From positions 1 through 64,000 of the IMG/VR virus record IMGVR_UViG_3300028840_003224: a stretch of 64,000 nt of DNA; one strand, 5' to 3'. A program made the position numbers and the translations under genes. The DNA is from an uncultured virus (IMG/VR IMGVR_UViG_3300028840_003224). Its lineage: Duplodnaviria > Heunggongvirae > Uroviricota > Caudoviricetes. Positions within the stretch are counted from its first letter, which is position 1; each line of letters begins with the position of its first letter. Positions 5,348 through 56,127 of this stretch are shown here, in pieces. The notes under the pieces are model-generated. The model saw nothing but the letters and a program-made list of their open reading frames with translations, did no database searches and was not told the origin of the DNA.

Positions 5348-6349
5348 ATGGACCGACGAGACGCACTGAAAGGCATGGCAGCCACCGCGAGTGGTTTGCT
5401 ACTTCCCAAGGCAGCTTCGGCTGGCTTGTTCACGCCCTCCAACAGTCAGTTCGGGTGGACACCGAACGAAACGTCTCTCAAAGATTTCATACGTCGTCAT
5501 AAGAACCCCTACGTCACCAACCTGAACGAATCGATCAAGGGCAGCGGCAAAGGCAAGACTGTCCTGCTCTGGAAGGCCTTGGAACGCGTGATGGGCCAGA
5601 AGCTCGTCCCGCACAACCAGAAGGCCCCTGACTGTGTCTCGCAAGGATTCGCACTCGGAGTCGACTTCGTGTCGGCCATCCAGATCGTTCTGGAGCGAAA
5701 GCCCGAGATGTGGAAGGGCAAAGCCGCCACAGAGCCCATCTACGGCGGTTCCCGCGTTGAAATCGGTGGTTACACCGGACGCGGCGGCGGAAGCACCGGT
5801 CACTGGGGTGCAGAGTGGATTTCACGCTACGGTATACTTTTGAGGCAAGAGTACCCAGGCGGGTACGACTTCACGACTTACGACGCGCAGAAATCGGTCG
5901 AGTATGGCCGAACGGGTTGCCCAGACGCTTTAGAGCCTCTGACGAAGCTTCACCCGGTTAAGAAGGTCGCCATTTGCCGATCTTACTCCGACCTCCGCGA
6001 CTGCATCGCCAACGGGCACCCTGTTGTGGTTTGCTCGAACGTTGGCTTCGGAAACGGTAAAGTCTGCCGCAGAGACTCTGAGGGCTTTTTGACGCGAAAG
6101 CGGAAGCCTTGGATGCACTGCATGATGTTTGGTGGTTACGACGACAAATACCGCCGCCCAGGTGCGTTATGCATCAACTCCTGGGGTTATGGATGGATCG
6201 AAGGCCCTACGCGACTAGAACAGCCCGCTGGGTCGTTCTGGATCGATGCCAAGACCGTCGACTACATGTTGCGGCAAGGCGACTCGTTCGCGTTGTCCGC
6301 GTATGTCGGATACCCGAAATTGAACATCCCTCCGTACATCCTATTTTGA
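5348..6349 (+). CDS. Papain-like (C1-type) cysteine peptidase with twin-arginine signal
   Basis: MDRRDALK...AASA signal; Q....DCVSQG, WMHCM, INSWG catalytic motifs. Confidence 0.85.
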   Translation: MDRRDALKGMAATASGLLLPKAASAGLFTPSNSQFGWTPNETSLKDFIRRHKNPYVTNLNESIKGSGKGKTVLLWKALERVMGQKLVPHNQKAPDCVSQGFALGVDFVSAIQIVLERKPEMWKGKAATEPIYGGSRVEIGGYTGRGGGSTGHWGAEWISRYGILLRQEYPGGYDFTTYDAQKSVEYGRTGCPDALEPLTKLHPVKKVAICRSYSDLRDCIANGHPVVVCSNVGFGNGKVCRRDSEGFLTRKRKPWMHCMMFGGYDDKYRRPGALCINSWGYGWIEGPTRLEQPAGSFWIDAKTVDYMLRQGDSFALSAYVGYPKLNIPPYILF

Positions 6350-6356
6350 GGTCACC

Positions 6357-6812
6357 ATGAAGAGGTTACTCAATGGCTTTGCCGCGATTTACATCTGTCT
6401 CGCGCTATTTGTCGCTCACTCAGCTCTGGTTACGACTGAAGCGTCTGCTACGCGCCACCTTGATACAGGGAGTGTCGTGGTCGAAGCTGGACCAGCTGTA
6501 CGCGATCATCAACGACTGGCTGGACCTGAGCAGACGCCCCGAACCGACCGATCCTGCTACATCGTCGAAGTCTGGACCGCAAGCTGGTGCGGACCCTGTC
6601 GAAGATACAAAGCCACCGAGCTACCGGCTCTGGTGAAAGCGGGCTTCACAGTCACTGTCAAGGACTATGACACTGACAAGCCGCCCAAGGACGTGAAGAA
6701 GGTACCGACCATCCGGATCTACTACAAGGGCACTTACCTCCAACAGAAGACCTACTGGCGTGCGGAAGACATCGTCAAGTACGTTGACAACAGAATGGCA
6801 CTGAAAGGCTGA
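6357..6812 (+). CDS. Thioredoxin-fold protein with N-terminal signal/anchor
   Basis: WTASWCGPC and VPT motifs. Confidence 0.85.
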   Translation: MKRLLNGFAAIYICLALFVAHSALVTTEASATRHLDTGSVVVEAGPAVRDHQRLAGPEQTPRTDRSCYIVEVWTASWCGPCRRYKATELPALVKAGFTVTVKDYDTDKPPKDVKKVPTIRIYYKGTYLQQKTYWRAEDIVKYVDNRMALKG

Positions 6813-7123: not shown

Positions 7124-7407
7124 GCGCGGACATTAAGAAGGTCAAGGTCTCCGACAAGCCCAACAGTAAATACTGTGCCTTGTTCAAACGGAGTGACAAC
7201 ACTCTGCACCTGATCCTCGACGGCGACGACGAAGATAACGCCACCGCCGATATGACGTACAACAATGACATGTACGAGCTGGTACGGTCGAAGACCTTCG
7301 AGGGGTTGTTCACCGATGGCAAGACCAAAGGCGACTCTGAGAATGTGAAGCGAGTCAAAGACATGATGCTTCCAGAGACATGGCAGCCCGAGTGGGACGA
7401 CGAATGA
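7120..7407 (+). CDS. Hypothetical protein
   Basis: ATGA overlaps on both sides. Confidence 0.7.
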   Translation: MSADIKKVKVSDKPNSKYCALFKRSDNTLHLILDGDDEDNATADMTYNNDMYELVRSKTFEGLFTDGKTKGDSENVKRVKDMMLPETWQPEWDDE

Positions 7408-8459
7408 TGCGACGTGCAGACATGGTCGACAGAGGCAGACGCCTCGCACCAGCCGGTGGTAAGTTCGGCAAGTTCGCTTTATACACTTCTGGTAGCGACA
7501 TAGTATCTTCAACCGTCACTGACCCGCCTGGAGCGATAACCTGGAAGTTCAGCGATGGCGATACCTATGTCGGGACAGGTATAAACCACACCTTCAGTCC
7601 TGACAATGCGCCAGACAACTATGTAAAAGTCAAGCTGGATAAGATCCTGGTTAACCTCGAAGCGTCCGGCGAGAAACTGACAAACATCGTGTGGCAAGGA
7701 AAGTATACTAACCTTGCAGACCTGCGAATATCCTCGAATGAACTCACCGAGATAGACACATTCGACACATGGGTGAACCTGGACCTGATCTGGGTGCACG
7801 TCAATTACTTGACTGATTTTGTTGGGCATAGTTCCTGGGTGAATTTACGTGAGGTGTATTTATTCAGTCAACTGGGTGGCGGTTTGCAGACGGTTACAAC
7901 GCACAATACTTGGTCAAGCCTCGTCACGCTGCGTGCCAACAACAATAAGCTGATTTCGTTCGAGACTCACCCAGGATGGACAAGCCTTGAACGACTCGAC
8001 CTGTATGTCAACTCAACCCTGACAGCAGTTGACACATACAACACATGGACGAACCTGAAGCGACTGTATGTCAACAGCACTGGCATAACCAGCTTGGAGA
8101 CACATCCAGAGTGGACTGAGATTTATGACTTGGCTATCAACAATAACCTTGGCATGACTAGCCTTGAGACTCACGACACCTGGACGAAGTTGTACATACT
8201 CTATGTTCATGCGTGCAATCTGACTTCGTTTAACCTGCACGACACAATGGTTGCGTTGAACACTTGCTACTGCCACGATAATAACTTGGATGCAACTACG
8301 ATTGACGCTTTGCTGATCGCTCTCGACGACGCCGGTAAAGCCACGGGCACCTTCTGGTATCAGGACAACCCCGGCAGCGCAGACGTGGACCGCAGTGCCG
8401 CCGCAGCAACCGCCAAGACCAATCTCGTCACTAGGGGCTGGGTCATAGTAAGCACGTAG
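7404..8459 (+). CDS. Leucine-rich repeat protein 1
   Basis: About 9 repeats of LxTHxxWxxLxxLxxxxN, ~23-24 aa each. Confidence 0.85.
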   Translation: MMRRADMVDRGRRLAPAGGKFGKFALYTSGSDIVSSTVTDPPGAITWKFSDGDTYVGTGINHTFSPDNAPDNYVKVKLDKILVNLEASGEKLTNIVWQGKYTNLADLRISSNELTEIDTFDTWVNLDLIWVHVNYLTDFVGHSSWVNLREVYLFSQLGGGLQTVTTHNTWSSLVTLRANNNKLISFETHPGWTSLERLDLYVNSTLTAVDTYNTWTNLKRLYVNSTGITSLETHPEWTEIYDLAINNNLGMTSLETHDTWTKLYILYVHACNLTSFNLHDTMVALNTCYCHDNNLDATTIDALLIALDDAGKATGTFWYQDNPGSADVDRSAAAATAKTNLVTRGWVIVST

Positions 8460-10695: not shown

Positions 10696-12357
10696 ATGGG
10701 AGGTTTACTCGATGCTTTTGGTGAAGCACTCAACTCAGGACTGGTGTCTCGCACACTGACGTCTTGCAGCCGCTGGGTGGAGCACCGCAGAATCATGGGT
10801 GAACCTTTCCCCGGTCCTTACAGCTTCAAGTACCACCCTTGGTGCCGAGACATCCACGACTCGCAAGCGAGTTACAACAGCACGATGAAGGCAGCCCAGT
10901 TGGGGCTCACAGAGGTAGCAATCAACCTCGCCTTCTTCACAGTCGATGTGCTCAAGCGGGACGTACTTTACGTCCTGCCCACCGCATTGAACGCTAGTGA
11001 CTTCAGCAAGTCGCGGTTCAGCACCGCACTGATGAACAGCCCTTACCTGAAGGACTTATTTACAGACACAAACACGGTCGGCCTCAAGCAAGCTGGCGGC
11101 GTGAACCTCTATATCAGAGGCTCGCGCGGCGACAGCAACCTGAAGTCGATTCCGGTATCCGTGCTGGTGCTGGACGAAGCGGACGAAATGGATCAGAGAG
11201 CCATCTGGCTCGCCCTGGAGCGGCTGTCCGGTCAGCTCCACAAGACCGTCCACTCGCTGAGCACCCCGACGATCCCGCAGTTCGGCATCCACAAGCTGTT
11301 CCTGCAAGGCACCCAAGAGCACTTCTACTTCAAGTGCCCTCGGTGTGGAAGGCGAACCGAGTTCATCTTCCCTGAGTGCTTGGAGATCTGCGGCGAGACG
11401 ATCACCGACCCCGACGTGAAGCGATCCCACCTGAAGTGCAAGGAGTGCAAAGGGCGAATCGACCACGAAGAGAAGCCTGACTTCCTGAAGAAGGCCTTCT
11501 GGGAGAACACTGTACAAGTAGAAGAGGACCACCGCAGCTTCTACGTCAACCAGATGTACTCGTACACTGTGACGCCCGCCGAACTGGCACTGGCGCACTT
11601 TCGAGGCATCGGCGACGAAGCGGCCATGGTCGAGTTCTGGAACTCGAAGCTGGGGCTGCCGTACATCCCGGATGGCGGGCAGATCACCGAAGACGAGATC
11701 CAGACGGCAGTGCGCAACTATTTTAAGGCTAACCAGCGACCTCAGATCGGCACCGACAAGTGCATCGTGATGGGTGTCGACCAAGGTAAGCAGAATCACG
11801 TGGTTGTGGTCGAATACGAGCTGCACGGCTATTACGACGTCAACGCCACCGCCGAGGCCAAGATCCTGTGGGAAGGCAAGCTGCCGGGCGACGACTTCAA
11901 GCACCTCGACCCGCTGATGCGGGAGTGGCAAGTCAAGGCGTGCGTGATCGACGCGGACCCGCAGATCAACGACGCGCGGCGGTTCGCCCGACGGTTCCCA
12001 GGCTACGTCTACCTATGCCGATACCGGCGAGGTGTGACCGGCAAAGAGCTTCAGATAGCTGAAGAAGACAGCGGAGCCGCTCTCGTGACCGTGGATCGCA
12101 CGAACTGGCTGGACGCCTCGATGGGGCGGTTCCACTCAGACAGAGTAACCATCCCTGCCGACACCTCGTTGGAGTTCAAGGATCATCTGAAGGCCCTCGT
12201 GCGAACGTACGAGAAGGACGAGTTAGGAAACAGCAAGGCGGTCTATTTGAACAACGGGCCCGATCACTTTGCTCATGCATTCAATTATGCGGAGATAGCC
12301 CTGCCACTGGCGGCCAATATCGTTTCTGGCGGCGACATTGACGAGAAGGTATTATAA
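10696..12357 (+). CDS. terL: Terminase large subunit (lambda GpA-like)
   Basis: MKAAQLGLTE Walker A variant, LVLDEADEM Walker B, STPT, CxxC pairs, MGVDQG nuclease motif, DHFAHA. Confidence 0.93.
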   Translation: MGGLLDAFGEALNSGLVSRTLTSCSRWVEHRRIMGEPFPGPYSFKYHPWCRDIHDSQASYNSTMKAAQLGLTEVAINLAFFTVDVLKRDVLYVLPTALNASDFSKSRFSTALMNSPYLKDLFTDTNTVGLKQAGGVNLYIRGSRGDSNLKSIPVSVLVLDEADEMDQRAIWLALERLSGQLHKTVHSLSTPTIPQFGIHKLFLQGTQEHFYFKCPRCGRRTEFIFPECLEICGETITDPDVKRSHLKCKECKGRIDHEEKPDFLKKAFWENTVQVEEDHRSFYVNQMYSYTVTPAELALAHFRGIGDEAAMVEFWNSKLGLPYIPDGGQITEDEIQTAVRNYFKANQRPQIGTDKCIVMGVDQGKQNHVVVVEYELHGYYDVNATAEAKILWEGKLPGDDFKHLDPLMREWQVKACVIDADPQINDARRFARRFPGYVYLCRYRRGVTGKELQIAEEDSGAALVTVDRTNWLDASMGRFHSDRVTIPADTSLEFKDHLKALVRTYEKDELGNSKAVYLNNGPDHFAHAFNYAEIALPLAANIVSGGDIDEKVL

Positions 12358-12819
12358 ATGGCGGCAACTAAGGCACGAAGAGAACAACTCAACAAGCTGA
12401 AGTTGCTGGAAACAGCAGGCACAAAAGTCTGCTCCGGGTGCGACGAGATAAAACCCACCACTGAGTTTCACAAAGCGAAGGACGGTCGCAAGGGGCTGTG
12501 CAGCAGATGTAAAGTTTGCAACTGTAAAAGAGCACAGGAACACAGCAGCTCACAGGCTGGAAGGAATTGCAGACTGCAAAGGGCTTACGGGATGTCCTTA
12601 GAAGACTACTCCCTTCTTCTCGCCTCTCAAGGCGGAAAGTGCAAGATATGCGGCTCGGAAAAGCCAAAAGGAAGGTGGGCTCAGTTTCACGTAGATCACT
12701 GTCATAAGGATGGACATGTGCGTGGTATTTTGTGCAACCGTTGCAACACAATGTTAGGCATGGTAGACGATGACCCTGCTGCTCTGCGAGCCGCTCTCAA
12801 ATACTTAGAGGAAAACTGA
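12358..12819 (+). CDS. Endonuclease VII-type HNH nuclease
   Basis: QGGKCKIC...HVDHCHKDGHVRGILCNRCNTMLG. Confidence 0.9.
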   Translation: MAATKARREQLNKLKLLETAGTKVCSGCDEIKPTTEFHKAKDGRKGLCSRCKVCNCKRAQEHSSSQAGRNCRLQRAYGMSLEDYSLLLASQGGKCKICGSEKPKGRWAQFHVDHCHKDGHVRGILCNRCNTMLGMVDDDPAALRAALKYLEEN

Positions 12820-16173: not shown

Positions 16174-17559
16174 ATGAACTTGTACCTCTGTTTCGCTAAC
16201 GACAACGACGCCTTGATCCCCGAACTGTGGGCCCAAGAATCCCTGGCAATCCTCGAAGAGAACATGGTGATGGCCAACTTGGTCCACCGTGATTTCAGCC
16301 CGTTGGTCGCCAGCTATGGTGACGTGGTCAACACCCGTCGACCCAGCGAGTTCTCGACCAAGCGTAAGGCTCAGTCGGACAGCGTTGTCAACCAGGACGC
16401 GATCAGCACCAACGTGCAGGTCCCGCTCAACCAACACGTCTACGTGACCTTCACGATCAAGGACGAAGAGGCTTCCTTGTCCTTCAAGGAATTGATCTCT
16501 TACTACATGGAACCCGCCGCGATGCAAATGGCTCGCACGGTAGACCGCATCCTGTGTGGTCAGGTCCATCGCTTCAACGCCAACGCCACTGGCCGTCTGG
16601 ATGAAATGTCCAGCTCGAACGCCAAGGATTGGATCTTGGAAACCCGTGAAGTCATGAACGTCAACAATGCGTATCCGACGGGTCGTAATTTGGTCGTGAG
16701 CCCTCAGGCTGAGACCGAAATGTTGAAGACCGAACTGTTCATCCAAGCCAACACGCGTGGCGACAATGGTACGGCTCTTGAGGAAGCACGACTCGGTCGC
16801 GTCCTCGGCTTCGACACTTACATGGACCAGAATGTCAACCATCGTCCTCTGTTGGACGGCGACACTCTGACCCTGAACCATGCTGCTGGCGCTAGCGCTG
16901 GCGACACGGGCAACAAAGCGGTCACCGCCTCCTCGGCAGTGACAGTCGGTTCGTTCGTATGGTTCACCGGCGAAGGTCAGCCTCACGAAGTGAAGGCTCT
17001 GACTGGTACCACGACTGGTATCACGCTGAACGATGCTTACAAGTATGCCGTCTCCGCGAATGCGGTTGGCTATGCTTGGGAACCCGCAGTGGTTGGCGCG
17101 ACGTACGCCGCTGGCTACGACAAGGGCATTACGCTCAACACCATCGCAGCTAACAAGCTGCCGCTCGTTGGCCAGATGATGGCTTTCGGTACGACCAATG
17201 GTGGCGACCGTCACGAGTACACGATCATCGAAGTTGACGCTGTGTCGACTACGAGTGTCATCGTTTGGCTCGACAAGCCCCTCACCGCCGCCGTCACCGC
17301 TGCGGACTTGGCCTTCCCAGGCCCGAGTGGCTCGATGTGCTTCGCGTTCCACCGTGACGCTTTGGCTCTGGTTAGCCGTCCTCTGGCGTTGCCTAGCAAC
17401 AGCCTGGGCGTGCAAGCTGCCGTTGGTAGCTTCAACAACCTCGCCATGCGAGTTGCGATGCAGTACGACATCTCCAGCCAGGGTACCATCGTGACCCTCG
17501 ACATGCTGTGTGGCGTGGCGACGCTGGATACCAACCTCGGTTGTGTTCTGTATGCGTGA
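16174..17559 (+). CDS. Major capsid protein (P22 coat-like, HK97 fold)
   Basis: IPELWA...NLVHRDF...GDVVN, LGFDTYMDQN, FAFHRDALALVSRPL, LDMLCGV. Confidence 0.92.
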   Translation: MNLYLCFANDNDALIPELWAQESLAILEENMVMANLVHRDFSPLVASYGDVVNTRRPSEFSTKRKAQSDSVVNQDAISTNVQVPLNQHVYVTFTIKDEEASLSFKELISYYMEPAAMQMARTVDRILCGQVHRFNANATGRLDEMSSSNAKDWILETREVMNVNNAYPTGRNLVVSPQAETEMLKTELFIQANTRGDNGTALEEARLGRVLGFDTYMDQNVNHRPLLDGDTLTLNHAAGASAGDTGNKAVTASSAVTVGSFVWFTGEGQPHEVKALTGTTTGITLNDAYKYAVSANAVGYAWEPAVVGATYAAGYDKGITLNTIAANKLPLVGQMMAFGTTNGGDRHEYTIIEVDAVSTTSVIVWLDKPLTAAVTAADLAFPGPSGSMCFAFHRDALALVSRPLALPSNSLGVQAAVGSFNNLAMRVAMQYDISSQGTIVTLDMLCGVATLDTNLGCVLYA

Positions 17560-47278: not shown

Positions 47279-47436
47279 TTCACGAACTGCTTGACAGCTT
47301 GGACACCTGCTTTCAAGACTCGCTAGTGCAAGTCGAGATCAACGGCGTCCGTCACGACATCCACCGAGCATTGGAGAACTCAGAGAGCCTCGTCCTAGTG
47401 GTCGACCTCGATGAGGAAGAAAGGGAAATGCGTTGA
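47272..47436 (+). CDS. Small hypothetical protein
   Basis: MLVHELLDSLD; overlaps both neighbours. Confidence 0.6.
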   Translation: MLVHELLDSLDTCFQDSLVQVEINGVRHDIHRALENSESLVLVVDLDEEEREMR

Positions 47437-48599
47437 AAGTTCAAGATGCCTGCCCGGCTTGTGGCACAGTGGACGTGTACCCCTTGATCGATATGGGTCG
47501 GCAGCCGCTTTCATTAGTGGCTCTGACCAAGACCAAGGGCGACTCTGAGTGTCAGCTGCGGCTGCCAATCACGATCTCGATCTGCGAGCAGTGTGGGCAC
47601 TGCTTCAACACCAGCTTCACACACGAGGTGGAGTATTCCGGCGAAGGCTGTCGCATGTGGAACAATGGCCACAGGTGGCTGCGACATATGGAAGAGCTGG
47701 CCGGAAGCGTCAACTACCGATATGGAACCGTACCGACCGTGCTGGAGATTGGGGCTGGCAACTGCGAGTTCCTCGACATGCTGGACCCTGGGTTCATCAA
47801 GATCGCAGTGGACCCGGCAGCCAACAAGGGAGGCTGCGAGGATCAGAACATTCATGTCGAGAAGAACTACTTCGACCCGAGCCGCCATCTTCCTAATGGC
47901 GCTGGCGACTTGGTCGTGGTTATGCGACATCTCCTGGAACACATGGAGGACCCGAAGAGTTTCATGGAGGGCATCGCCCAAGCCCGTCGACACTTCGGCA
48001 AGAACGCCAATGTTGTTGTGGAAGTGCCCAGCATCGAGAACGCCCTGACCGACACACGACTGGCAGACTGGACGTACGAGCACCCGCAGCACTTCACACG
48101 GGCCAGCTTGGTCAGTCTGATGCAACGTGCCGGGTTCGAGACGGACGCTTGCTACAGGTCCTACGGCGGCGAGGTGCTGGTTTACATCGGCCATGTCCTA
48201 CCGTTCGAGGAGGACACCTTCTGCAAGTTGCGCGACAGCTTTAACAAGATGTCGTTCACCTGCTGCAAGATCGGAGCCGAACTCAAAGACATGGACAGCG
48301 TGGCCTACTGGGGCGGTGCTGGCAAGTCGGCGATGTTCCTGAACTACCTCGGCGTTCCTGAAGACGCTCTGGTGGTGGACAGCGACGAGAACAAGGTCGG
48401 CATGTACGTTCCTGGGACTGGCATCCAGATCACGTCCCCAGAGAAGCTGCTGATCGACCACGTAGACACAATTGTTATAACGACTGCTTGGCGTAAGGCA
48501 GACATCGCCGAAGAGATCAAGCGTCGCAACATCCCGTGCAACCGCATCCTGTCTTTCGAGCAGGGCAAATTAGTGGAGGTCGACCGTGGCCAGGAATAA
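47433..48599 (+). CDS. NDP-sugar C-methyltransferase (Zn-binding + SAM + C-terminal Rossmann)
   Basis: CPACG..MGRQPL..CEQCGH, VLEIGAG, HLLEH, YEHPQHF, YWGGAGKS, VDSDENKVGMYVPG. Confidence 0.88.
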   Translation: MKVQDACPACGTVDVYPLIDMGRQPLSLVALTKTKGDSECQLRLPITISICEQCGHCFNTSFTHEVEYSGEGCRMWNNGHRWLRHMEELAGSVNYRYGTVPTVLEIGAGNCEFLDMLDPGFIKIAVDPAANKGGCEDQNIHVEKNYFDPSRHLPNGAGDLVVVMRHLLEHMEDPKSFMEGIAQARRHFGKNANVVVEVPSIENALTDTRLADWTYEHPQHFTRASLVSLMQRAGFETDACYRSYGGEVLVYIGHVLPFEEDTFCKLRDSFNKMSFTCCKIGAELKDMDSVAYWGGAGKSAMFLNYLGVPEDALVVDSDENKVGMYVPGTGIQITSPEKLLIDHVDTIVITTAWRKADIAEEIKRRNIPCNRILSFEQGKLVEVDRGQE

Positions 48600-50490
48600 G
48601 AAACGACAGAAGCAGCTGGACGCGAAGCGCAAGACCAAGTCGCTGCGACAGAAGGCGGTGTCCGAGCAGCTCATCATCGAGCCCACCAAAGAGACGGGCA
48701 TCCCCGCACTGAATTACAATGCGTGCTTGAAGGCGGTCACCGCTCGCGACCCCAAGGTCTGGGACTTGATCATCAAGTACCTGCTGTTCTTCGAGTCGCA
48801 TCACTTCACCAAGTTCTCCACTGCGGCCATCAAGGTGCTGAATGAATTCGTTCAGATCACCAACACGGCTTTGATGGACGAAGAGTTTGTGCCGAACGAC
48901 AATCACGCACAAGGCCTCGTCCAGGTGGGTCACTTGTACCAGCACATCGTGGCCCTTACCGGCTACGAAACAACGGACGGCCCGCTGCGGAATGTGCTCA
49001 TCACAAAGGACAACGCAGCCAAGGTTCTGATGTTGCAGAACCCTCGATGCGTGACCCAGATCTCTCAGGACAACTTGTTCGCAGTCAGCCCGATACTGGC
49101 TTCGATGTGGTACCAAACCTACTTGCTCGGTATTTCGTCGCCTACCAATGTCATTCAGGCGAACATGTACAATCACATCAAGAACATCGACTCCCGGTGG
49201 GAGCCGTACTCGAACCACGTGTCTGGCATGTACTTCTCCAGCACCTATCATTGCCCTGAGCATGTACGCAACCTGAAGGCCATCATGAACACGGCCATGA
49301 AGAAGGCCATCAAAGAGAAGCTGAACTGGACGTTCACCAACAACCCAGACCCGAAGTCAATCGCGATCATCACCAACCGGTGGCACCGCAACCACGCAGT
49401 GTACAAGTCCGCTGGCCCGCTGGTAGAGCAGTGGAAGGACAAGTACAAGCTGACCCTGATCTGGACCGGAGAGCACAACCCAGACACGATAGTGACCGAC
49501 TACTTCGACTCGGTGCACAAGTGCTACTTCCGACAGGACGGCGGAATTGAGATGCCTGAGGCGTTGGTCGACAACGACTTCCAGATGGTATACTTCCCTG
49601 ACATCGGCATGTCGGACGAGAGCATCTGGCTGAGCAACTGTCGCATGGCCCCGATCCAAGCGGTCGGCTACGGTCACCCTGACACGACCGGCGACAACAA
49701 CGAAATCGACTACCACTTCGGTGGCGACGTCGAGAAGGACTGCGACCCAGAGGCCTACTCTGAGACTCGCGTCATGATCCCTGGTCTCGCACAAGAGCCC
49801 GCGTGGCCGACGTACGAGAGGAAGCACAACTACAAGGCTGACGGCATCGTTCGCATCAACTGCGTGTGGGGCCCCGACAAATACAACAACACGTTGTTGC
49901 AGATAGTCGGTGCTATCAACCAGCGAGTCATCGCCCTGAAGAAGGAAGCCGAATCGGAGCCAGTGCTCGACCACGAGTTCCACTTCTTCGCCAGCCCTGG
50001 GGTCAACCGCTACGCTGCGTTGCCTAGCTTCGTCAACGAGGCCCGCAAGATCGTGCCGAACATGATCATGCACAACGCACAGGAGTATTACGACTACATG
50101 GAGAACGCGGAGCAGCACGACCTCTCCCTGAACTCCTTCCCGTTCGGATGCTACAACGTTCTGATAGAGAGCCTCTACATGGGGCTGCCTTTCATCACGA
50201 TGGTCGGCTCTCGGTTCTACAACCGGGCCGGTATGTGGCTGAACGATCAGGTTGGCATGAGCGAGAACAACGTGACCTCGCCTCGTGACTTTGTCGAGCG
50301 AGCAGCCGAGCTGATCGTCGACCCGGAGAAACTTGCCGCGCAGCGGGAGCACTTGGCAAGCCTGAACCTGAAGGAACGACTGTTCACACTCAAGGGAAAC
50401 TACTTCCTTGAAGCCTTAGAGTACACACTAAAGAATCACCCTTTTACTGAAACGAAACTCATCGGAGAACCAAATGACCAAGCTGAATGA
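48586..50490 (+). CDS. HMW1C-like protein N-glycosyltransferase (GT41)
   Basis: NHAVYK, YFPDIGM..SIWLSNCRMAPIQAVGYGHPDTT, DLSLNSFPFGCYN..ESLYMGLP; helical N-domain, no evident TPRs. Confidence 0.88.
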   Translation: MARNKKRQKQLDAKRKTKSLRQKAVSEQLIIEPTKETGIPALNYNACLKAVTARDPKVWDLIIKYLLFFESHHFTKFSTAAIKVLNEFVQITNTALMDEEFVPNDNHAQGLVQVGHLYQHIVALTGYETTDGPLRNVLITKDNAAKVLMLQNPRCVTQISQDNLFAVSPILASMWYQTYLLGISSPTNVIQANMYNHIKNIDSRWEPYSNHVSGMYFSSTYHCPEHVRNLKAIMNTAMKKAIKEKLNWTFTNNPDPKSIAIITNRWHRNHAVYKSAGPLVEQWKDKYKLTLIWTGEHNPDTIVTDYFDSVHKCYFRQDGGIEMPEALVDNDFQMVYFPDIGMSDESIWLSNCRMAPIQAVGYGHPDTTGDNNEIDYHFGGDVEKDCDPEAYSETRVMIPGLAQEPAWPTYERKHNYKADGIVRINCVWGPDKYNNTLLQIVGAINQRVIALKKEAESEPVLDHEFHFFASPGVNRYAALPSFVNEARKIVPNMIMHNAQEYYDYMENAEQHDLSLNSFPFGCYNVLIESLYMGLPFITMVGSRFYNRAGMWLNDQVGMSENNVTSPRDFVERAAELIVDPEKLAAQREHLASLNLKERLFTLKGNYFLEALEYTLKNHPFTETKLIGEPNDQAE

Positions 50491-51748
50491 AAAGAGCGTG
50501 AAAGAGATCAAGGTGGATCTCTCAGAGAAGCTACTCACTCAGAAGGAAATCGGCACGAAGTACGGCGTCAGCCGGTCTGTCATCAGTGACATCGCCTGTG
50601 GCCGAGTACACAAAGACGTCAAAGCGGAGATAGTCATGACCGAGCAAGACGCCCAGATCTTCAAGCTGCAATCCGACAACGAGCATCTCCGAGACGAACG
50701 CAACAAGTACAAGCGGCAGCTCAAGTCCGCCGCCAAGACTCAGGGCTTGTTCCAAGCCGTGGTCGAGGAGATGGACGAACGAGTCAAGCCGATGCGTCCG
50801 CTGCCCTCGGCACGCCCCAAGTTCAAGAAGGACGGCAAGGGCACCATCCGCGAGCACCTCGTGATGCACATCAGTGATGGTCACCACGACCAGATCGTCA
50901 CGCCCGACGACACGGGCGGACTGGAGACCTATGACTTCCCCATTTCGATGTGTCGGGCCGAGAGGTATGTTGACACGATCCTCAAGTGGACCCAGCAGAC
51001 CTTGCAAGGCTTCGCCTTCCCCAGCCTCACCGTGCTGGCCTACGGCGACCACACGTCCGGCGAGATTCATGGACATACATCGCGATCCTATTTCCGCAAC
51101 GCTTTTAAGAATGCGTTTGCTATCGGTCAACTCCACTCGCTGATGTACCGCGACCTCGCCCCGTACTTTGATCAGGTCAACATCGTCTACGTGCCGGGCA
51201 ACCACGGTCGCCGGTCCAATAAGAAGGACTACCATGGCGCGCATGACAACTGGGACTACCTGATCGCCAAGACCGCCGAGATGTATCTCCGCGACTTGCC
51301 GAACGTTTCCTTCAACATTCCCAACTCGTTCTCGTGCAACCTGGACATTGGCGGCGTCGGCTTCCAAGTCTTCCATGGCGACGACATCCGCTCAAGCTTG
51401 GGCATTCCGTGGTACGGCCTGGAGAAGCGCCGTCACCGAATGATGGCCTTGAACGGTGTTCAGAACTGTACCCCGATTCGCTACTACTGTTGCGGTCACT
51501 TCCACCGCCCCGGTTCGACGACCGAGGTGAATGGCGAGATGCTCATCAACGGCGCGTGGCCTGCAAGTGACGCCTACGCGTTCAACGCCCTCGGCGGGTT
51601 CACTGAACCTTCCCAGTTGATCCACGGCGTCAACAAGGACTATGGTATCACGTGGCGGCTTCCTGTGAAGCTGCGTTGTCCCTACGAAGCGACTGGACCG
51701 CGTCGTTACAAGATCGACCAGATGGAAGAGATCGCAGCGGCACTGTAG
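50474..51748 (+). CDS. HTH + calcineurin-like metallophosphoesterase
   Basis: ISDGH, YGD, PGNHG, FHGD, GHFH. Confidence 0.88.
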   Translation: MTKLNEKSVKEIKVDLSEKLLTQKEIGTKYGVSRSVISDIACGRVHKDVKAEIVMTEQDAQIFKLQSDNEHLRDERNKYKRQLKSAAKTQGLFQAVVEEMDERVKPMRPLPSARPKFKKDGKGTIREHLVMHISDGHHDQIVTPDDTGGLETYDFPISMCRAERYVDTILKWTQQTLQGFAFPSLTVLAYGDHTSGEIHGHTSRSYFRNAFKNAFAIGQLHSLMYRDLAPYFDQVNIVYVPGNHGRRSNKKDYHGAHDNWDYLIAKTAEMYLRDLPNVSFNIPNSFSCNLDIGGVGFQVFHGDDIRSSLGIPWYGLEKRRHRMMALNGVQNCTPIRYYCCGHFHRPGSTTEVNGEMLINGAWPASDAYAFNALGGFTEPSQLIHGVNKDYGITWRLPVKLRCPYEATGPRRYKIDQMEEIAAAL

Positions 51749-51756
51749 GAGGCCAC

Positions 51757-52002
51757 ATGAAGCGTGACACACTAAGATCGTTGCGGGGAAGGCACCGCAG
51801 CGATCCAAGTCCAAACGACGTATTGAACGCGACGCCAATGATCATCCTGATCGCCCTCATCCGGCTACTCTGGATGGTTGTGAGCAGCGTCGCAATCGTG
51901 GTGGGCATTGGGCTCATCGGAGCATTGTTCCTACCTTTCACATGGTATCAAATTGCCCTTACAGTTTTCGTCGTGAGAATCCTGTTCGGGTTCGTTGACT
52001 AA
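51757..52002 (+). CDS. Small membrane protein
   Basis: AGGAGG RBS; hydrophobic C-terminal half. Confidence 0.65.
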   Translation: MKRDTLRSLRGRHRSDPSPNDVLNATPMIILIALIRLLWMVVSSVAIVVGIGLIGALFLPFTWYQIALTVFVVRILFGFVD

Positions 52003-52066
52003 CTCGTCCTTGGCGGACGTTTCCAAACCGACATGGACGTAAACACTTTTAGGAGTTCCTATTCTT

Positions 52067-52792
52067 ATGGCTGGTACTATTGCCACTTTCCTGACCGCTG
52101 CATCGACCATCAACACCAACGAAGACTCTGACCAGAAAGGTCAGCAGCGCCACGCGTACAAAGAGCTGCTTGACCTTCAAGCGATCAACGACCCCACCTT
52201 GTCGCCGCCGTACTTCGCTGATGACGCTTCGGCGTCCATCGCTGCCAACGGAGGCACGACTGGCAACTTCACTATCACACTCAGCTTCCCGAAGGTGGGC
52301 GTCGAAGTCACCACAGGCAACATCGCCTACAACTCGGCGAACGCCGCCGTCCAGACCGCTCTCGACACCGCCCTGTCTGGAGAGGTTCTGAACGAGACGT
52401 ACACCGCTGACGACCTCAAGGTTGGTGTGACTGCTAACGCGTCGTCGGCAGCCATCAGCATGACGGCGAACGGAGACTCAGTCACCAACTTGAACATGCT
52501 CGTCACGACGGCCAACGTCGACATGGACGTAGCAGCACCGGCAGTCACCGCCACTGGCGTTGGCACTGGCAACCGCCAGGGTGAAGCCCTCCTGGCTTAC
52601 CTCAGCGTTGTGACGCCCTTGGGCACCATTACGCCTCAGGGTGACACGCCTGCCGAAGGCGACTACGTGTTGGGTGACAACCCATTCTCACTGAGCCCCG
52701 GCTTGCAGGAGATTATCATCTCCTCGATCCAGCGGGACGAAGACAAGACTATTGGCGACGCCATCCGCGAAGTAGTGGGGTGTGTCCGATAG
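52067..52792 (+). CDS. Virion-like Thr/Ala/Asn-rich protein outside the structural module
   Basis: AGGAG RBS; GNFTITLSF..TTGNIAYNSANAAVQTALD tail-type motif. Confidence 0.75.
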   Translation: MAGTIATFLTAASTINTNEDSDQKGQQRHAYKELLDLQAINDPTLSPPYFADDASASIAANGGTTGNFTITLSFPKVGVEVTTGNIAYNSANAAVQTALDTALSGEVLNETYTADDLKVGVTANASSAAISMTANGDSVTNLNMLVTTANVDMDVAAPAVTATGVGTGNRQGEALLAYLSVVTPLGTITPQGDTPAEGDYVLGDNPFSLSPGLQEIIISSIQRDEDKTIGDAIREVVGCVR

Positions 52793-52793
52793 C

Positions 52794-53075
52794 ATGAAAC
52801 GAAGATCGTTTCTTAGGGTGATTGGAGCGGCAATACCAGCAATGGTGTTGCCGCTTCCTTTGTTGGGAGGCAGCACCCCCTCTGTAGCGGCGGTCCCCGC
52901 CCCCTGTGCGGTGGGAACCACTGGCATAGATTGTTTTGTACCTGAGTCCTGGGCATGCGATGGCCTAAAGGTACTCCAAGAGAACATGGCGATAGCTGAC
53001 ATTGTACACCGAGACTTTGAACCGCACGCCGCGAAGGCGATGGACAGAGTCAGAACAGAAAGAGGAGTGAAATGA
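52794..53075 (+). CDS. Twin-arginine signal fused to capsid N-terminus homologue
   Basis: MKRRSFL + hydrophobic stretch; 22/46 identity to capsid N-terminal segment. Confidence 0.8.
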   Translation: MKRRSFLRVIGAAIPAMVLPLPLLGGSTPSVAAVPAPCAVGTTGIDCFVPESWACDGLKVLQENMAIADIVHRDFEPHAAKAMDRVRTERGVK

Positions 53076-53251
53076 CCGGACCCCGATTCAAAGTGGTAGA
53101 GAACAAGAGCGGCTGCCACTGCTGCGCCCTTTACGACATTATGGACCTTCAGGAAAACGAGGTGGTTTGCAGCAGCGACGACGAAGGTTGGATGGAAGTC
53201 ATCCTCGATTGCTTGAACAGCACATACACCTGGATTGGTCCGTGCCTGTAA
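53072..53251 (+). CDS. Small hypothetical protein (not in ORF track)
   Basis: GAGGAG RBS, ATGA overlap; SGCHCC. Confidence 0.6.
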   Translation: MTGPRFKVVENKSGCHCCALYDIMDLQENEVVCSSDDEGWMEVILDCLNSTYTWIGPCL

Positions 53252-53266
53252 TTCCGAAATAAATAT

Positions 53267-53303
53267 TTGACATGCCCACGTCTGTGCGGTATGCTTTAAG
53301 TAG
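53267..53303 (+). promoter_or_regulatory. Sigma70-like promoter
   Basis: TTGACA-17-TATGCT-TTAAGTAG. Confidence 0.8.
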
Positions 53304-53312
53304 GAGAATCAC

Positions 53313-53645
53313 ATGAAGAGCAGATCACCCCAGCAGCTTGCCGAGGAAACGTATAACCTCAGCGTGGCGGCACTATACGCCGCAGCAGAGGCAGCGGGCT
53401 ACGAGCAAGACGAGATCGTCTCGTTCGCGTTCCGAGAGTCCTTCCTCACGGAAGAGCAGATCACCACCAACAACAAGATGATTGTGGAGGGATTCAAGCC
53501 TCCGTACAGTGCAGCCGTCTACCACAACGCTGTGCGCCTGAAGTCAGACTCAGGTGACATCCTGGGCCTCGTGGCGCAGATCCCTCTCACCCTCCGTCCT
53601 CAACCGCCTGAAGATGCATCAGTATCCATGGAGCGCAAATCATGA
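53313..53645 (+). CDS. Hypothetical protein
   Basis: AGGAG RBS after promoter. Confidence 0.75.
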   Translation: MKSRSPQQLAEETYNLSVAALYAAAEAAGYEQDEIVSFAFRESFLTEEQITTNNKMIVEGFKPPYSAAVYHNAVRLKSDSGDILGLVAQIPLTLRPQPPEDASVSMERKS

Positions 53646-53828
53646 TCGTAGGCCAACCCACCCGAACCCGTTGGCCCCGCTCCATTGAGGCCATCCTGAA
53701 GAAGCAGAAGCACACCACCACCAAGAGTGGCAGTCGGTACTACCCGAACTGGCAGCCCGACCATCGAGGCTCCAACGCCCCGCAGCCGGTCGTCATCCAC
53801 AACGTGGCCAACATAGGGGACATCAATC

Positions 53829-54242
53829 TTGACCGATAAACTCACAGCTCCCATCGAACTACTCAAGTACATCGTCGAGGAGACCTTCCGCCGCTATGAG
53901 GGCGAGGAAGGCTTCCGTGTCACGCAGGTGGATATGTACACCATGGTTGACGCCGAGTCAATCGAACGAGTCTGGTTCGACTGCGAAGACTTCGGAGATG
54001 AAATCGCGAGCGAGATCCGGTACGGCGAAGTAGAGACTGGCCTCGAAGCCCCGTACAATCGTCACTATGAAGCCAGGGAGGTCGGCATCCAGATTACAGA
54101 TGGTCGGTGGATCGGCTGGACGCACTGGTACGGCGGTGGCAAGCACGGCGATCCCGAGTCAATCGACTGGCAGCCGTACGCCTACTTCCTGGAGTGCACC
54201 GAGAAGCTGGTCAAGGTAAAGACCTGGAAGGCGGTGGACTAA
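53829..54242 (+). CDS. Hypothetical phage protein
   Basis: RHYE..WIGWTHWYGGGKHGDPESIDW. Confidence 0.75.
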   Translation: MTDKLTAPIELLKYIVEETFRRYEGEEGFRVTQVDMYTMVDAESIERVWFDCEDFGDEIASEIRYGEVETGLEAPYNRHYEAREVGIQITDGRWIGWTHWYGGGKHGDPESIDWQPYAYFLECTEKLVKVKTWKAVD

Positions 54243-54619
54243 TGTGGAGCCTCTGGCACCCCGAGAAGACTGAGCATGGCCTTCAGTTCCGGCTCAGCTA
54301 CAACATCAACTGGCAAGCCGCCGAGCTGCACGTCATAAAGAACGAGTTCGTCTACGGTTCGCCTGCTAAGCGGTTCCTCGCTCAGACCGAGTGGGTCGAC
54401 CTCGAAGACCTCAAAGGGAGCGACGCAGATCCCAGCTTCCGAGTAAAGGACCGGGAGGGCGGGAACAACCACTTCCAAGCTCTGTTCGACTGCTTGTGGG
54501 AGCAGGGCTACCGACCACCATCCGGCGAGGACCGGAACAAGGACGCCATCGTGCAGGCTAAGGACAGCCACCTGGACGACCTCCGAATGATCATCAAAGG
54601 ACACATGGACATACAATGA
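54242..54619 (+). CDS. Hypothetical protein
   Basis: TAATG coupling; QALFDCLWEQGYRP. Confidence 0.75.
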   Translation: MWSLWHPEKTEHGLQFRLSYNINWQAAELHVIKNEFVYGSPAKRFLAQTEWVDLEDLKGSDADPSFRVKDREGGNNHFQALFDCLWEQGYRPPSGEDRNKDAIVQAKDSHLDDLRMIIKGHMDIQ

Positions 54620-54885
54620 ACAAGAACTCTCCGTTCTGGCCGGTCAACGACGCGGCCTCCCGCCAAGTCTACGCGTCGCCGCCAACGCTGGCGGTCGTCC
54701 GCATCTACTCATCCGTCAACTACTTTGAAGATCGCAGGTTGGAGTTGGAGTGGCGAGGCAGCAAAGCTCTCACCGTGGCCCAGCTGTACGACAACGCCTT
54801 GGGCGGTTACTGGATCGAGGACGCTTTCATGCCTCGCGAGCACTTGCGTTTCATCACTGTCGGCAAACCATTTACAAAGGACTAA
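54616..54885 (+). CDS. Hypothetical protein
   Basis: ATGA overlap. Confidence 0.65.
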   Translation: MNKNSPFWPVNDAASRQVYASPPTLAVVRIYSSVNYFEDRRLELEWRGSKALTVAQLYDNALGGYWIEDAFMPREHLRFITVGKPFTKD

Positions 54886-54887
54886 CC

Positions 54888-55697
54888 ATGTGGAAACGAA
54901 TTCGTATAGCTATCGTGGTCGCTCTTATTACGACCGCGCTATTGATCGGCAGCCAACTGAAGGCCCAGCCGTTCCAGACGTACCCGGAGCAGAGGTGTGT
55001 GAAGAACGAAGGCTACGGGATGATCATCAACGACTTGGAGTGTCACGCCAGGGCGGGACACCCGATGCGGAACGAGAAGGACCCAGGGAACTGGGTTCAT
55101 GAACTCTGCCACCAAGTCAGCAGCGACATCCGTTGCAAGACCAAGGCGAACGACAACGCCATCTACCTGCTGAACAATCACTACGTGATCTTCGTCGAGC
55201 CAGACGTCACCTTGAAGCAGGTGGCTGCGATGGTGCACAAGACGCGGCGGACTGAGACCTGGAAGTTGTACCTCGTCGAGCAACAGCGTTACTGGAACCG
55301 CGAGCCACTCTACATCCTGGACGAGGGCAACGCGTTTGCCATGAGCGTTCTGTATCACACGATGGCGGGCACCGAGGACCCTTACAGGTACACGAAGGCG
55401 AAGGAATTCATCTACTTCTCCGAGGTGCTCCTGAAAGCCGTCAAGTATTACGACCCAGACTACGCCCAGCTGGAAGACCTGGAAGCGTTCATCAAGTACC
55501 AGAACAACCGAGTGAACAACATCCTCAAGCTGTACGACTACGAGGGTGGCGGCCCTGTGCCTGATGAGATCATCCCGGATGAGCTACCGGTGCCTGATGA
55601 GATCAACCCTGACCTTCCAATCGACTACGTCTTCAGCGGAGCCAGCTATCACAACCGTGGCCGGACGAAGAAGTTCTTTAAGAAAGCGGGGAAATAA
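54888..55697 (+). CDS. Secreted HExxH protein (zincin-like)
   Basis: Signal MWKRIRIAIVVALITTALLIG; WVHELCH; YILDE. Confidence 0.7.
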   Translation: MWKRIRIAIVVALITTALLIGSQLKAQPFQTYPEQRCVKNEGYGMIINDLECHARAGHPMRNEKDPGNWVHELCHQVSSDIRCKTKANDNAIYLLNNHYVIFVEPDVTLKQVAAMVHKTRRTETWKLYLVEQQRYWNREPLYILDEGNAFAMSVLYHTMAGTEDPYRYTKAKEFIYFSEVLLKAVKYYDPDYAQLEDLEAFIKYQNNRVNNILKLYDYEGGGPVPDEIIPDELPVPDEINPDLPIDYVFSGASYHNRGRTKKFFKKAGK

Positions 55698-55954
55698 TGG
55701 CAAGTGCACTAGCAAGTTTCATTTTGGTGGCCTGTTTATGTGGCATGCTCTTCTTCGCAATCATCGTGGTCTCCAACGAACGTGACGAGTATGCGAAGAA
55801 GTGGCGGGATCAACTGGCCGAAGTCACCCGCTTGCAGTTCCTCTGCAAGGACAACAGCAAGTCTTCGCAGAAGGCAATCGATGAGCTGAGGCTGCGCAAC
55901 TCGGCCATTATGGCTCGGCTCGTCGAGATCAAAGACATTGTGGAGGACGTATGA
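55697..55954 (+). CDS. TM + coiled-coil protein
   Basis: Hydrophobic N-terminus. Confidence 0.65.
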   Translation: MASALASFILVACLCGMLFFAIIVVSNERDEYAKKWRDQLAEVTRLQFLCKDNSKSSQKAIDELRLRNSAIMARLVEIKDIVEDV

Positions 55955-56127
55955 AACCGAGCGCAATCAAACTCCTGGCTGCCGTCCGTGACGCCCACTC
56001 AGCCCTCGACAGGTTCATCGCCGCCGAGGGGTGGCGTCACGAGGACGAGATAAAGCCAGCGTACTGGGCAGCCGTGCAAGCCCTTGAAGACTTCAAAGCA
56101 GAAATGGAAGAGGACCCTGGCCTGTGA
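55951..56127 (+). CDS. Small hypothetical protein (not in ORF track)
   Basis: GGAGG RBS; overlaps on both sides. Confidence 0.6.
   Translation: MKPSAIKLLAAVRDAHSALDRFIAAEGWRHEDEIKPAYWAAVQALEDFKAEMEEDPGL

Follow-up and report, generated by a model that had tools for sequence, protein, structure and literature searches.

Why would a phage carry a piece resembling the coat protein, behind what looks like an export signal, among its replication genes? The question is raised by a small gene of an uncultured siphovirus, of which we analysed a stretch of 64,000 nucleotides (hereafter the window) that forms part of a 73.9-kb virus record. A second record of the same phage (101.6 kb, 96% complete) was identical over the 10,279 bases compared. 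An earlier account made from the letters of the window, referred to below as the sequence-only reading, had described the gene product as a Tat signal peptide fused to a copy of the major capsid N-terminus.

Results

The small gene is tightly packed within a replication module

The gene map of the phage includes a large terminase (at 10696), a portal (12819) and a tape measure gene (24890). The major capsid (coat) protein (P0001, 461 aa; 16174..17559, plus strand) is of the P22 type, with matches to Pfam PF11651 (E 4.4e-35) and to phrog_283, major head protein (5.2e-60). Directly 5' of it lies the gene for a probable scaffolding protein of 269 aa (P0154; 15209..16018, plus strand), which is rich in Lys, Glu and Gln, has a basic C-terminus and has a homologue upstream of the capsid gene in related loci; by analogy with P22, this protein is a candidate partner of the coat N-arm. 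A replication module, which is probably an early or middle module, extends from ~37 to 59 kb and encodes a primase, an exonuclease subunit, a ParB-like protein, a helicase, an exonuclease and a DNA polymerase. Because no tyrosine integrase was found in the 96%-complete 101.6-kb record, the phage appears to be lytic. Shine-Dalgarno motifs and putative sigma-70-like promoters indicate a bacterial host.

The small gene (P0002; 52794..53075, plus strand) comprises 93 codons and a stop, and its full-length homologues measure 88-98 aa; an alternative GTG start at 52782 would give a product of 97 aa. As the sequence-only reading had stated, the product opens with MKRRSFL and a hydrophobic stretch, the gene is closely packed between its neighbours, and some 36 kb separate it from the capsid gene; we measured 36.6 kb between the two starts. 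The TAG stop of the upstream ORF occupies 52790-52792, leaving a gap of one base before the ATG, and the downstream ORF begins at 53072, where it overlaps the stop of the small gene (ATGA). The upstream ORF (241 aa; 52067..52792, plus strand) belongs to the same apparent transcription unit and is kept in two relatives, L009 (71%) and G006 (50%). It matched no Pfam or PHROG family and had no paralogue in the window by BLASTP; its AF2 model, built on a 3-row alignment, reached a mean pLDDT of 40.3. The downstream ORF (59 aa; 53072..53251, plus strand) is Cys-rich and has a strong Shine-Dalgarno motif that sits within the 3' end of the small gene, and the motif before the small gene itself is weak. 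Promoter-like sites, both identified by consensus match only, were found 5' of the three-gene unit (51937..51965, plus strand; TTCACA-17-TACAGT, 9/12) and at the opening of the next unit (53267..53295, plus strand; TTGACA-17-TATGCT, 10/12), and the latter would set the 3' limit of the unit that holds the small gene.

The small protein begins with a twin-arginine-type leader (residues 1-24; 52794..52865, plus strand) composed of the n-region MK, the motif RRSFLR and the h-region VIGAAIPAMVLPLPLL, with the RR codons at 52800-52805. A linker rich in Pro, Ala, Val and Thr follows (residues 25-43; 52866..52922, plus strand); AF2 gave it no secondary structure (pLDDT 54-70), and its length and sequence vary across the family. 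Residues 44-74 (…DCFVPESWACDGLKVLQENMAIADIVHRDF; 52923..53015, plus strand) are the counterpart of the coat N-arm helix, as supported by BLASTP, the AF2 helix and conservation. The remaining residues, 75-93 (53016..53072, plus strand), form a tail that aligns to capsid residues 41-56 (…DRVRTER vs …DVVNTRR) and is poorly conserved among the small forms.

The small gene is an old paralogue of the coat N-arm

BLASTP aligned residues 46-90 of the small protein with capsid residues 12-56 (16207-16341, plus strand) without gaps, at 22/45 identical and 29/45 positive positions, and with an E-value of 1e-13 that is that of a single-pair comparison. The ungapped alignment given in the sequence-only reading is borne out, its count of 22/46 including one extra mismatched column. 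When the 73.9-kb record was searched in all six frames over its full length, nothing but the small ORF itself and 16204-16341 within the capsid gene was returned (E 1.4e-10 for the latter). Over the aligned segment the two genes share 73 of 135 bases (54%), and the longest shared run is 12 bases; on these figures, recent duplication or recombination debris was rejected. First, second and third codon positions were identical at 28, 30 and 15 of 45 sites, respectively, and thus third positions are near random.

Compared with 82 different capsid N-arms of the family, the small protein matched at 16-24 of 45 positions (median 22). The phage's own capsid, at 22/45, ranked 45th among the 82 and was no closer than the others. 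Since the match to its own capsid equals the family median, the small gene is an old paralogue. The description of a copy of the capsid N-terminus therefore stands as regards homology and falls as regards a recent copy of the phage's own capsid. For dN/dS there was a single usable pair, the window and L006, with few sites and values only moderately below 1: 0.47 overall, 0.35 for the leader and 0.43 for the helix. Taken together with the size of the family and the helix conservation described below, and with the codon-position pattern, these values uphold the earlier view of a maintained gene, not debris, and point to constraint that probably acts at the protein level.

The small protein lacks a complete coat fold: only 45 residues align, PF11651 gave no match, and AF2 predicted a single helix besides that of the leader. 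We therefore regard it as a derivative of the capsid family and not as a capsid protein. Among published phages, a tblastn search of the small protein against 50,697 records gave no match, and the DNA from 50000-56000 gave just three short matches, to an unrelated small gene.

A possible reduction from capsid fold to N-arm helix

In a word-indexed search, P0003 (94 aa, 60% identical) and P0004 (114 aa, 37% identical) emerged as homologues built in the same way. The nearest relatives, at 93-94 aa and 54-60% identity, have the same length as the small protein. Eleven loci from a metagenome scan consisted of the phage itself, four of the same architecture (L006, L008, L010 and L009, the last cut by the contig end), one ordinary capsid (L007) and five that were unrelated. 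Among 1.84 billion representatives searched with a profile, 272 proteins matched at E<=0.001, and the listing covered the best 150 of them. When the 153 proteins collected (the matches listed being the best 150 of 272) were screened with a regular expression, 51 had an RR leader followed by the N-arm motif, and this supports the proposed two-part build of Tat-type leader plus coat N-arm. Seven of the 51 have 295-412 aa and the other 44 have <=200 aa, so that short RR-leader proteins with capsid fragments, for which the sequence-only reading had suggested a search, do occur. P0002 and P0003 are counted among the 44, as are P0046 and P0133, although these last two have the appearance of N-terminal fragments of long forms. 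Four proteins of 732-2297 aa with many low-complexity stretches (P0005, P0074, P0122 and P0135) were left out of all counts; P0027 and P0090, which have no RR and are probably truncated gene calls, were left out of the 42-row alignment used below; and P0032 and P0069 were missed by the regular expression behind the conservation and leader counts. The matches listed show a diverse family of predicted proteins.

The long members of this family indicate where the small forms may have come from. RR proteins of 347-412 aa align to capsid residues ~8-222/264 and 384-460, and by this alignment each is a whole capsid fold without the inserted domain, set behind the leader and a spacer of ~50 residues. 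In line with this, the Atlas model of P0076 matched capsid clusters over residues 79-348 (TM 0.62-0.69 by query). Shorter members retain less: P0049 (295 aa) keeps capsid residues 10-222 and 390-458; P0032 keeps 14-130 and 404-445; P0004, P0045 and P0063 keep the N-arm and the C-terminal strand; and most small forms, the window's copy included, keep the N-arm only. The leader and the helix are the only constants across the series. Because the long members combine an RR leader with a near-whole capsid fold, the small forms appear to be the last stage of a stepwise reduction that began with a near-whole capsid paralogue.

By exact look-up, the long RR-capsid forms were singletons on contigs of 1.3-52.9 kb. 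Searched against viral contigs, the leader-plus-spacer alignment found only two unrelated RR proteins and P0076 only an ordinary capsid; genome contigs yielded ordinary capsids, three in number, of which one was degraded and lay in the chromosome of a member of the Planctomycetaceae. For the small protein itself, all ESM Atlas matches were below 0.9 and serve as leads only, among them a cluster named Fe-only hydrogenase small subunit at 0.84. In a tree of 120 N-arm helices (30 columns) no branch was starred; the RR forms cluster on it (11 changes vs 38.8 in shuffles), a pattern that fits a single origin as well as several.

The leader resembles Tat signals across the family

Residues 2-8 of the small protein read K-R-R-S-F-L-R, set against the Tat consensus S/T-R-R-x-F-L-K, and are followed by an uncharged run. 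Its h-region has a mean hydropathy of 1.39, and a small-x-small VAA at residues 31-33, within the linker, is among the possible signal-peptidase sites there. On TIGR01409 the leader scored 14.7 bits against a cut-off of 16.7 (E 0.03), which places it just under the threshold, and a Pfam scan of the small protein gave no match at E<=1, PF10518 included. Among the 42 aligned family leaders, 29 match TIGR01409 and 23 match PF10518, both counted at E<=1 and not above the curated cut-off; the best E-values were 1.8e-5 and 3.1e-6, respectively. The RR pair is invariant in these 42 rows, which were chosen for having it. In the 51 RR-plus-N-arm proteins, it occurs at positions 3-11 behind short n-regions, in the context x-R-R-x-F-L-K, and precedes a median of 17 uncharged residues that are weakly hydrophobic (hydropathy mean 1.7, median 1.68). 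With the family alignment, AF2 placed a leader helix at residues 4-18.

Searched against the PDB, the family profile found a solved major capsid protein (9jwb_A, E 4.7e-4) and, weakly, the leaders of the Tat substrates EfeB, NapA, CueO and the Fe-hydrogenase small subunit (E 0.12-0.32). To see whether an RR leader joined to a virion piece is a more general design, two other RR-leader proteins (L002:5001-5273 and L207:1501-2079) were compared with the rest of their own records, and neither had a second match at E<=1.

The N-arm helix is conserved as strongly as in capsids

AF2 predicted a helix at residues 44-74 with a block pLDDT of 89-96 (~90), and this segment is the conserved core of the family. 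The positions P, E, W, A, E, L, L, E, N, M, H, R, D and F are conserved at 0.80-1.00 in 45 small forms vs 0.75-1.00 in 28 capsids. Within this capsid family the N-arm helix is the most conserved stretch, and an automated locus search selected it as its pattern. Acidic and hydrophobic positions are both kept in the small forms as strongly as in capsids. Some circularity enters this equality, since the profile that retrieved the proteins itself includes the helix and the RR rows were picked by regular expression. After HRDF, conservation is 0.1-0.4 in the small forms and 0.89-1.00 in capsids (G, D, V, N, P). These results show that the part of the protein behind leader and linker is a 30-residue amphipathic helix followed by a short degenerate tail. 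In the window's own helix, several positions that the family mostly conserves carry other residues (S, C, D, G, K, Q). A complex prediction of scaffold residues 130-269 with small-protein residues 40-93, both entered as alignments and run without controls, scored 0.00, a value that bears on binding in neither direction.

The small gene is optional and lies among replication genes

The small gene was absent from 9/9 other related virus records, all of which have the capsid gene and 4 of which are at least 90% complete. One complete syntenic relative of 117 kb (G006), with a capsid 83% identical, has the exonuclease gene and the 241-aa ORF in place, and different small ORFs occupy the position of the small gene after the latter; across the complete relatives that lack the gene, capsids are 57-83% identical. 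No RR-plus-N-arm ORF was present in 80 loci that covered up to 10 kb either side of the capsid gene, and one was present in 1/91 further loci. That locus belongs to a complete 136.5-kb genome with terminal repeats, in which a 98-aa gene lies between primase and exonuclease, ~17 kb from the capsid gene and on the opposite strand to it. These results show that the small gene is optional.

In five contexts (the window together with L009, then L006, L008, L010 and G011), the small gene lies among primase, exonuclease or helicase genes and on their strand. Its position within the replication module differs among the five, and in none is it in the head module. Optional occurrence combined with a position in a probable early module is easier to reconcile with a part in conflict, or with some other accessory role, than with one in core assembly, and for this reason we rank the former above the latter. 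A search of PADLOC-DB 2.0 with seven proteins (P0002, three neighbours, P0157, P0014 and P0039) gave no match at E<=0.01 and is uninformative for counter-defence.

Discussion

A possible interface mimic with a relocation signal

In the P22 procapsid, the coat N-arm (residues 2-30) is described as a helix that receives the C-terminal helix-turn-helix of the scaffold, with coat D14, E15 and E18 binding scaffold R293 and K296, and on maturation the N-arm extends into the neighbouring subunit (PMC9965877). Because its acidic and hydrophobic positions are kept as strongly as in capsids, we read the helix of the small protein as an interface mimic, which would still engage something that the N-arm naturally binds, be it the coat body, the scaffold or a factor specific for this invariant epitope. 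Guided by the leader, the helix would reach the TatBC receptor, inner membrane or periplasm, either by itself or together with what it has bound, as Tat hitchhiker subunits do, and the partner would probably be relocated or sequestered. Such a role would be accessory, of a conflict or regulatory type, and played early in infection, and would not be a core step of head assembly. We put the whole of this reading, a maintained optional gene whose leader and N-arm mimic relocate or sequester a partner in an accessory role, at somewhat under an even chance. Points that weigh against it include the likelihood that an amphipathic helix makes poor Tat cargo when it is free and its hydrophobic face is exposed, and the fact that a mimic that does not distinguish the phage's own coat from a rival's would also hit its own assembly.

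A bolder form of this idea, which we consider distinctly unlikely, is that such proteins are modular "grab-and-relocate" adaptors, in which a constant Tat leader is joined to a piece of virion protein with a native interface and export is used as a weapon. The piece would seize a cytoplasmic protein that recognises the interface, for example a sensor with which the host detects capsids, or else coat or scaffold made by a rival phage in the same cell, and the leader would drag the seized complex to, or through, the Tat translocon.

Alternative explanations

Defence systems that sense major capsid proteins, Avs7 and Dsr1, have been documented in a preprint (bioRxiv 10.64898/2026.01.04.697583), and they lend interest to an anti-defence decoy, in which the helix, made early, would occupy a host capsid sensor while the leader removed or immobilised the complex at the membrane. 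The N-arm helix, as the most conserved stretch of the capsid family, would be the least mutable epitope; the gene is optional, sits in a variable small-ORF region of the kind typical of counter-defence genes and belongs to a probable early module; and the long whole-capsid forms would be fuller decoys still. However, a copy of the trigger could equally set the sensor off, the buried-type hydrophobic positions of the helix are conserved too although a sensor reading the surface would not need them, and the recourse to Tat, rather than to simple abundance, is left unexplained. We also know of no capsid sensor for this phage or its host, and on balance we judge the decoy fairly unlikely. Much the same judgement applies to a function in the periplasm or envelope after export, in which the helix would bind a component of an incoming related phage and so bring about superinfection exclusion or protect the progeny. 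A leader typical of exported proteins, the early-module position and the optional distribution all suit this reading, and the Pro-rich linker looks like a spacer keeping a domain off the membrane. Several long forms, moreover, have a proline after the likely A-x-A site (…AAP, …AQP, …ASP), and a proline there disfavours cleavage, which would leave a membrane anchor. On the other side, siphoviruses are not known to pass any partner from the capsid interior across the periplasm, the retention of the whole set of coat N-arm contacts goes unexplained, and exclusion of the lysogen type is unlikely because the 96%-complete genome has no tyrosine integrase. Interference with the assembly of a rival phage is one of four candidate readings, and the Tab and Tai systems, as they have been described, are its nearest published analogues. 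Three of the four, namely the decoy (named first), the procapsid tether and the interference, had been put forward in the sequence-only reading.

The small protein might also help the phage's own assembly, its leader binding the Tat receptor or the membrane without transport and its helix recruiting scaffold or coat, so that some procapsids would form or dock at the membrane near replication and packaging. In P22 the scaffold is described as binding exactly this helix (PMC9965877); here the gene lies beside replication genes, and the long forms could co-assemble with coat. Against this, the gene is dispensable, being absent from complete relatives with 57-83% identical capsids, its position varies, and the positive-inside rule would put the helix outside, not inside; we think a helper improbable. 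It is likewise improbable, in our estimate, that the N-terminus is something other than a working Tat signal, namely a Sec signal, a plain membrane anchor or a peptide with another partner. Such doubt is raised by the score of the window's copy below the TIGR01409 cut-off and its lack of a Pfam TAT_signal match, by the 13/42 members without a TIGR01409 match even at E<=1, and by the phage's lack of TatA/B/E genes of its own in the 101.6-kb, 96%-complete record. It is countered by the RR in every one of the 42 rows (chosen for it) with its x-R-R-x-F-L-K context, by the low hydropathy of the h-region (mean 1.7) and the short n-regions, and by the weak retrieval of known Tat substrates from the PDB. 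Least probable, and in our view very unlikely, is that the gene is the decaying leftover of a once longer Tat-capsid paralogue and is inactive in this phage. Its helix does stray from the family consensus and its own Shine-Dalgarno motif is weak; yet the frame is intact, the length is that of the nearest relatives, the start is coupled to the upstream stop, and substitutions are conservative, with first and second codon positions conserved vs random third positions.

Relation to known systems

The N-arm of P22-type (HK97-fold) coat proteins is a close counterpart: the conserved core of the small protein shares homology with coat residues 12-56, and a helix is predicted for it. Unlike in those proteins, the helix stands alone, without P-domain, A-domain or E-loop, behind an export-type leader and in a gene of the replication module. 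A fragment that keeps a native subunit interface is a classical dominant-negative inhibitor of assembly. We know of no case in which a phage re-uses its structural proteins as short modules bearing an export tag. The assembly-interference systems Tab, of Pseudomonas phage JBD26, and Tai are similar in being optional genes of mobile elements that act on a phage structural protein and not on DNA, and both are reported to act on tails (PMC10884400, PMC11364771). They differ in that, as far as these accounts describe them, they have no Tat leader and are not fragments of their target, and in that the phage studied here appears to be lytic. Capsid-redirecting satellite proteins share with the small gene the first of these likenesses, namely optional mobile-element genes whose products act on a phage structural protein. 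T4 Imm and Sp and T5 Llp, exported superinfection-exclusion or receptor-masking proteins of lytic phages, are comparable in that their genes are small, optional and early and that the proteins end up in the envelope; they differ in using Sec, lipoprotein or membrane-anchor signals and in not being derived from virion proteins. In a literature search that drew mostly on titles and abstracts, no description of a Tat leader fused to a capsid fragment was found. The combination of leader and N-arm matches no class described in the literature so searched.

Should the helix have kept its binding to coat, to scaffold or to a capsid sensor, the small protein would represent a new class of phage accessory protein, an interface mimic with a relocation signal, and phages would then exploit the host Tat pathway, which handles proteins and complexes in the folded state, as a means of conflict or regulation. 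Members of this large and old family are easily recognised, and its apparent reduction series, from whole capsid paralogue to one helix, marks the minimal functional element of the coat N-arm.

The leaders of the family have the motif, n-region and h-region of Tat signals. In the hitchhiker mechanism, a small subunit bearing a Tat signal co-exports a leaderless partner. By analogy with such subunits of the periplasmic hydrogenase and DmsA type, the small protein, being small and helical and having a Tat-type leader, could carry a leaderless partner; a match of the family profile to the Fe-only hydrogenase small subunit 1hfe_S was weak (E 0.14). Unlike the hydrogenase-type hitchhikers, it has no cofactor domain and no known partner, and it is of phage origin. 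A likeness to uncleaved Rieske-type Tat anchors is seen in 4/42 family members, which also match the Rieske Tat-signal family PF10399. As a separate observation, the phage encodes a second protein with the same kind of leader, at 5348..6349.

RR-leader proteins carrying a near-complete capsid fold

The family of the small gene (52794..53075, + strand), which joins a twin-arginine-type (RR) leader to a copy of the coat protein N-arm helix, includes seven long members of 347-412 aa: P0076, P0039, P0037, P0069, P0095, P0119 and P0125. These proteins share one order of parts, in which the RR leader is followed by a conserved spacer of ~50 residues (…PDEY..K.E.F..LYG…TPE..I..AI) and then by a near-complete P22-type capsid fold, and in several of them the last strand of the capsid is repeated once more at the C-terminus (…LD..LK.V.LG). 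Each of the seven forms a singleton cluster, and their contigs range from 3 to 53 kb. Within the small gene itself, the stretch encoding the hydrophobic region of the leader contains a hairpin (52824-52857, + strand) of 15 pairs, 8 of them G-C, with a 4-nt loop.

Small phage-encoded proteins with RR-type leaders were also found at four loci in other records: L207:1501-2079 (in the complete genome G011), L002:5001-5273, L101:7378-7824 and L102:9134-9415. The proteins from L207 and L002 had no second match within their own records at E<=1. A degraded copy of the P22-type capsid to which the small gene is related lies at L111:9959-10672, in a 6.6-Mb bacterial chromosome, a MAG titled uncultured Planctomycetaceae bacterium; ~110 good residues remain at its N-terminus, beyond which the frame is lost. 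This copy gives a weak hint of one host lineage for the capsid family, not for the phage of the window.

A second RR-leader protein in the window

By sequence, a second protein of the window (5348-6349, + strand; 333 aa, MDRRDALKG…) bears a twin-arginine-type leader. Its scores for PF10518 (E 0.022) and Peptidase_C39_2 (E 0.002) were weak and below cut-off, and no sequence match was found in the PDB. At two other loci (L031 and L061), from phages that lack the small gene, homologues sharing this leader are found ~8 kb upstream of the capsid gene. The product may be an enzyme of the cell wall or envelope that is exported by the Tat pathway. Among the 53 window ORFs scanned, no endolysin was recognised. 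Directly after it lies a thioredoxin-like ORF (6357-6812, + strand; PF00085, 9.5e-6), and a 359-aa leucine-rich-repeat ORF (7380-8459, + strand; PF12799, 5e-10), upstream of the terminase, adjoins this cluster of putative exported proteins.

Other genes of the window

An endonuclease VII / HNH-type gene (12358-12819, + strand; phrog_2633, 1.2e-39) is flanked by the large terminase and portal genes. Inside the replication module sits a gene for a 388-aa methyltransferase (47433-48599, + strand; PF13489, PF08484, PF08421), with a C-methyltransferase domain at the C-terminus and a putative zinc-binding N-terminus, which suggests sugar or base modification. Between 50000 and 56000, DNA similarity to published phages was confined to a 137-aa ORF (53829-54242, + strand; phrog_25120, 2.3e-24), which matched Pseudomonas phages phi1 and vB_PaeS-D14O and Rhizobium phage RHph_N3_2 at 75-81% over 63-98 bases.
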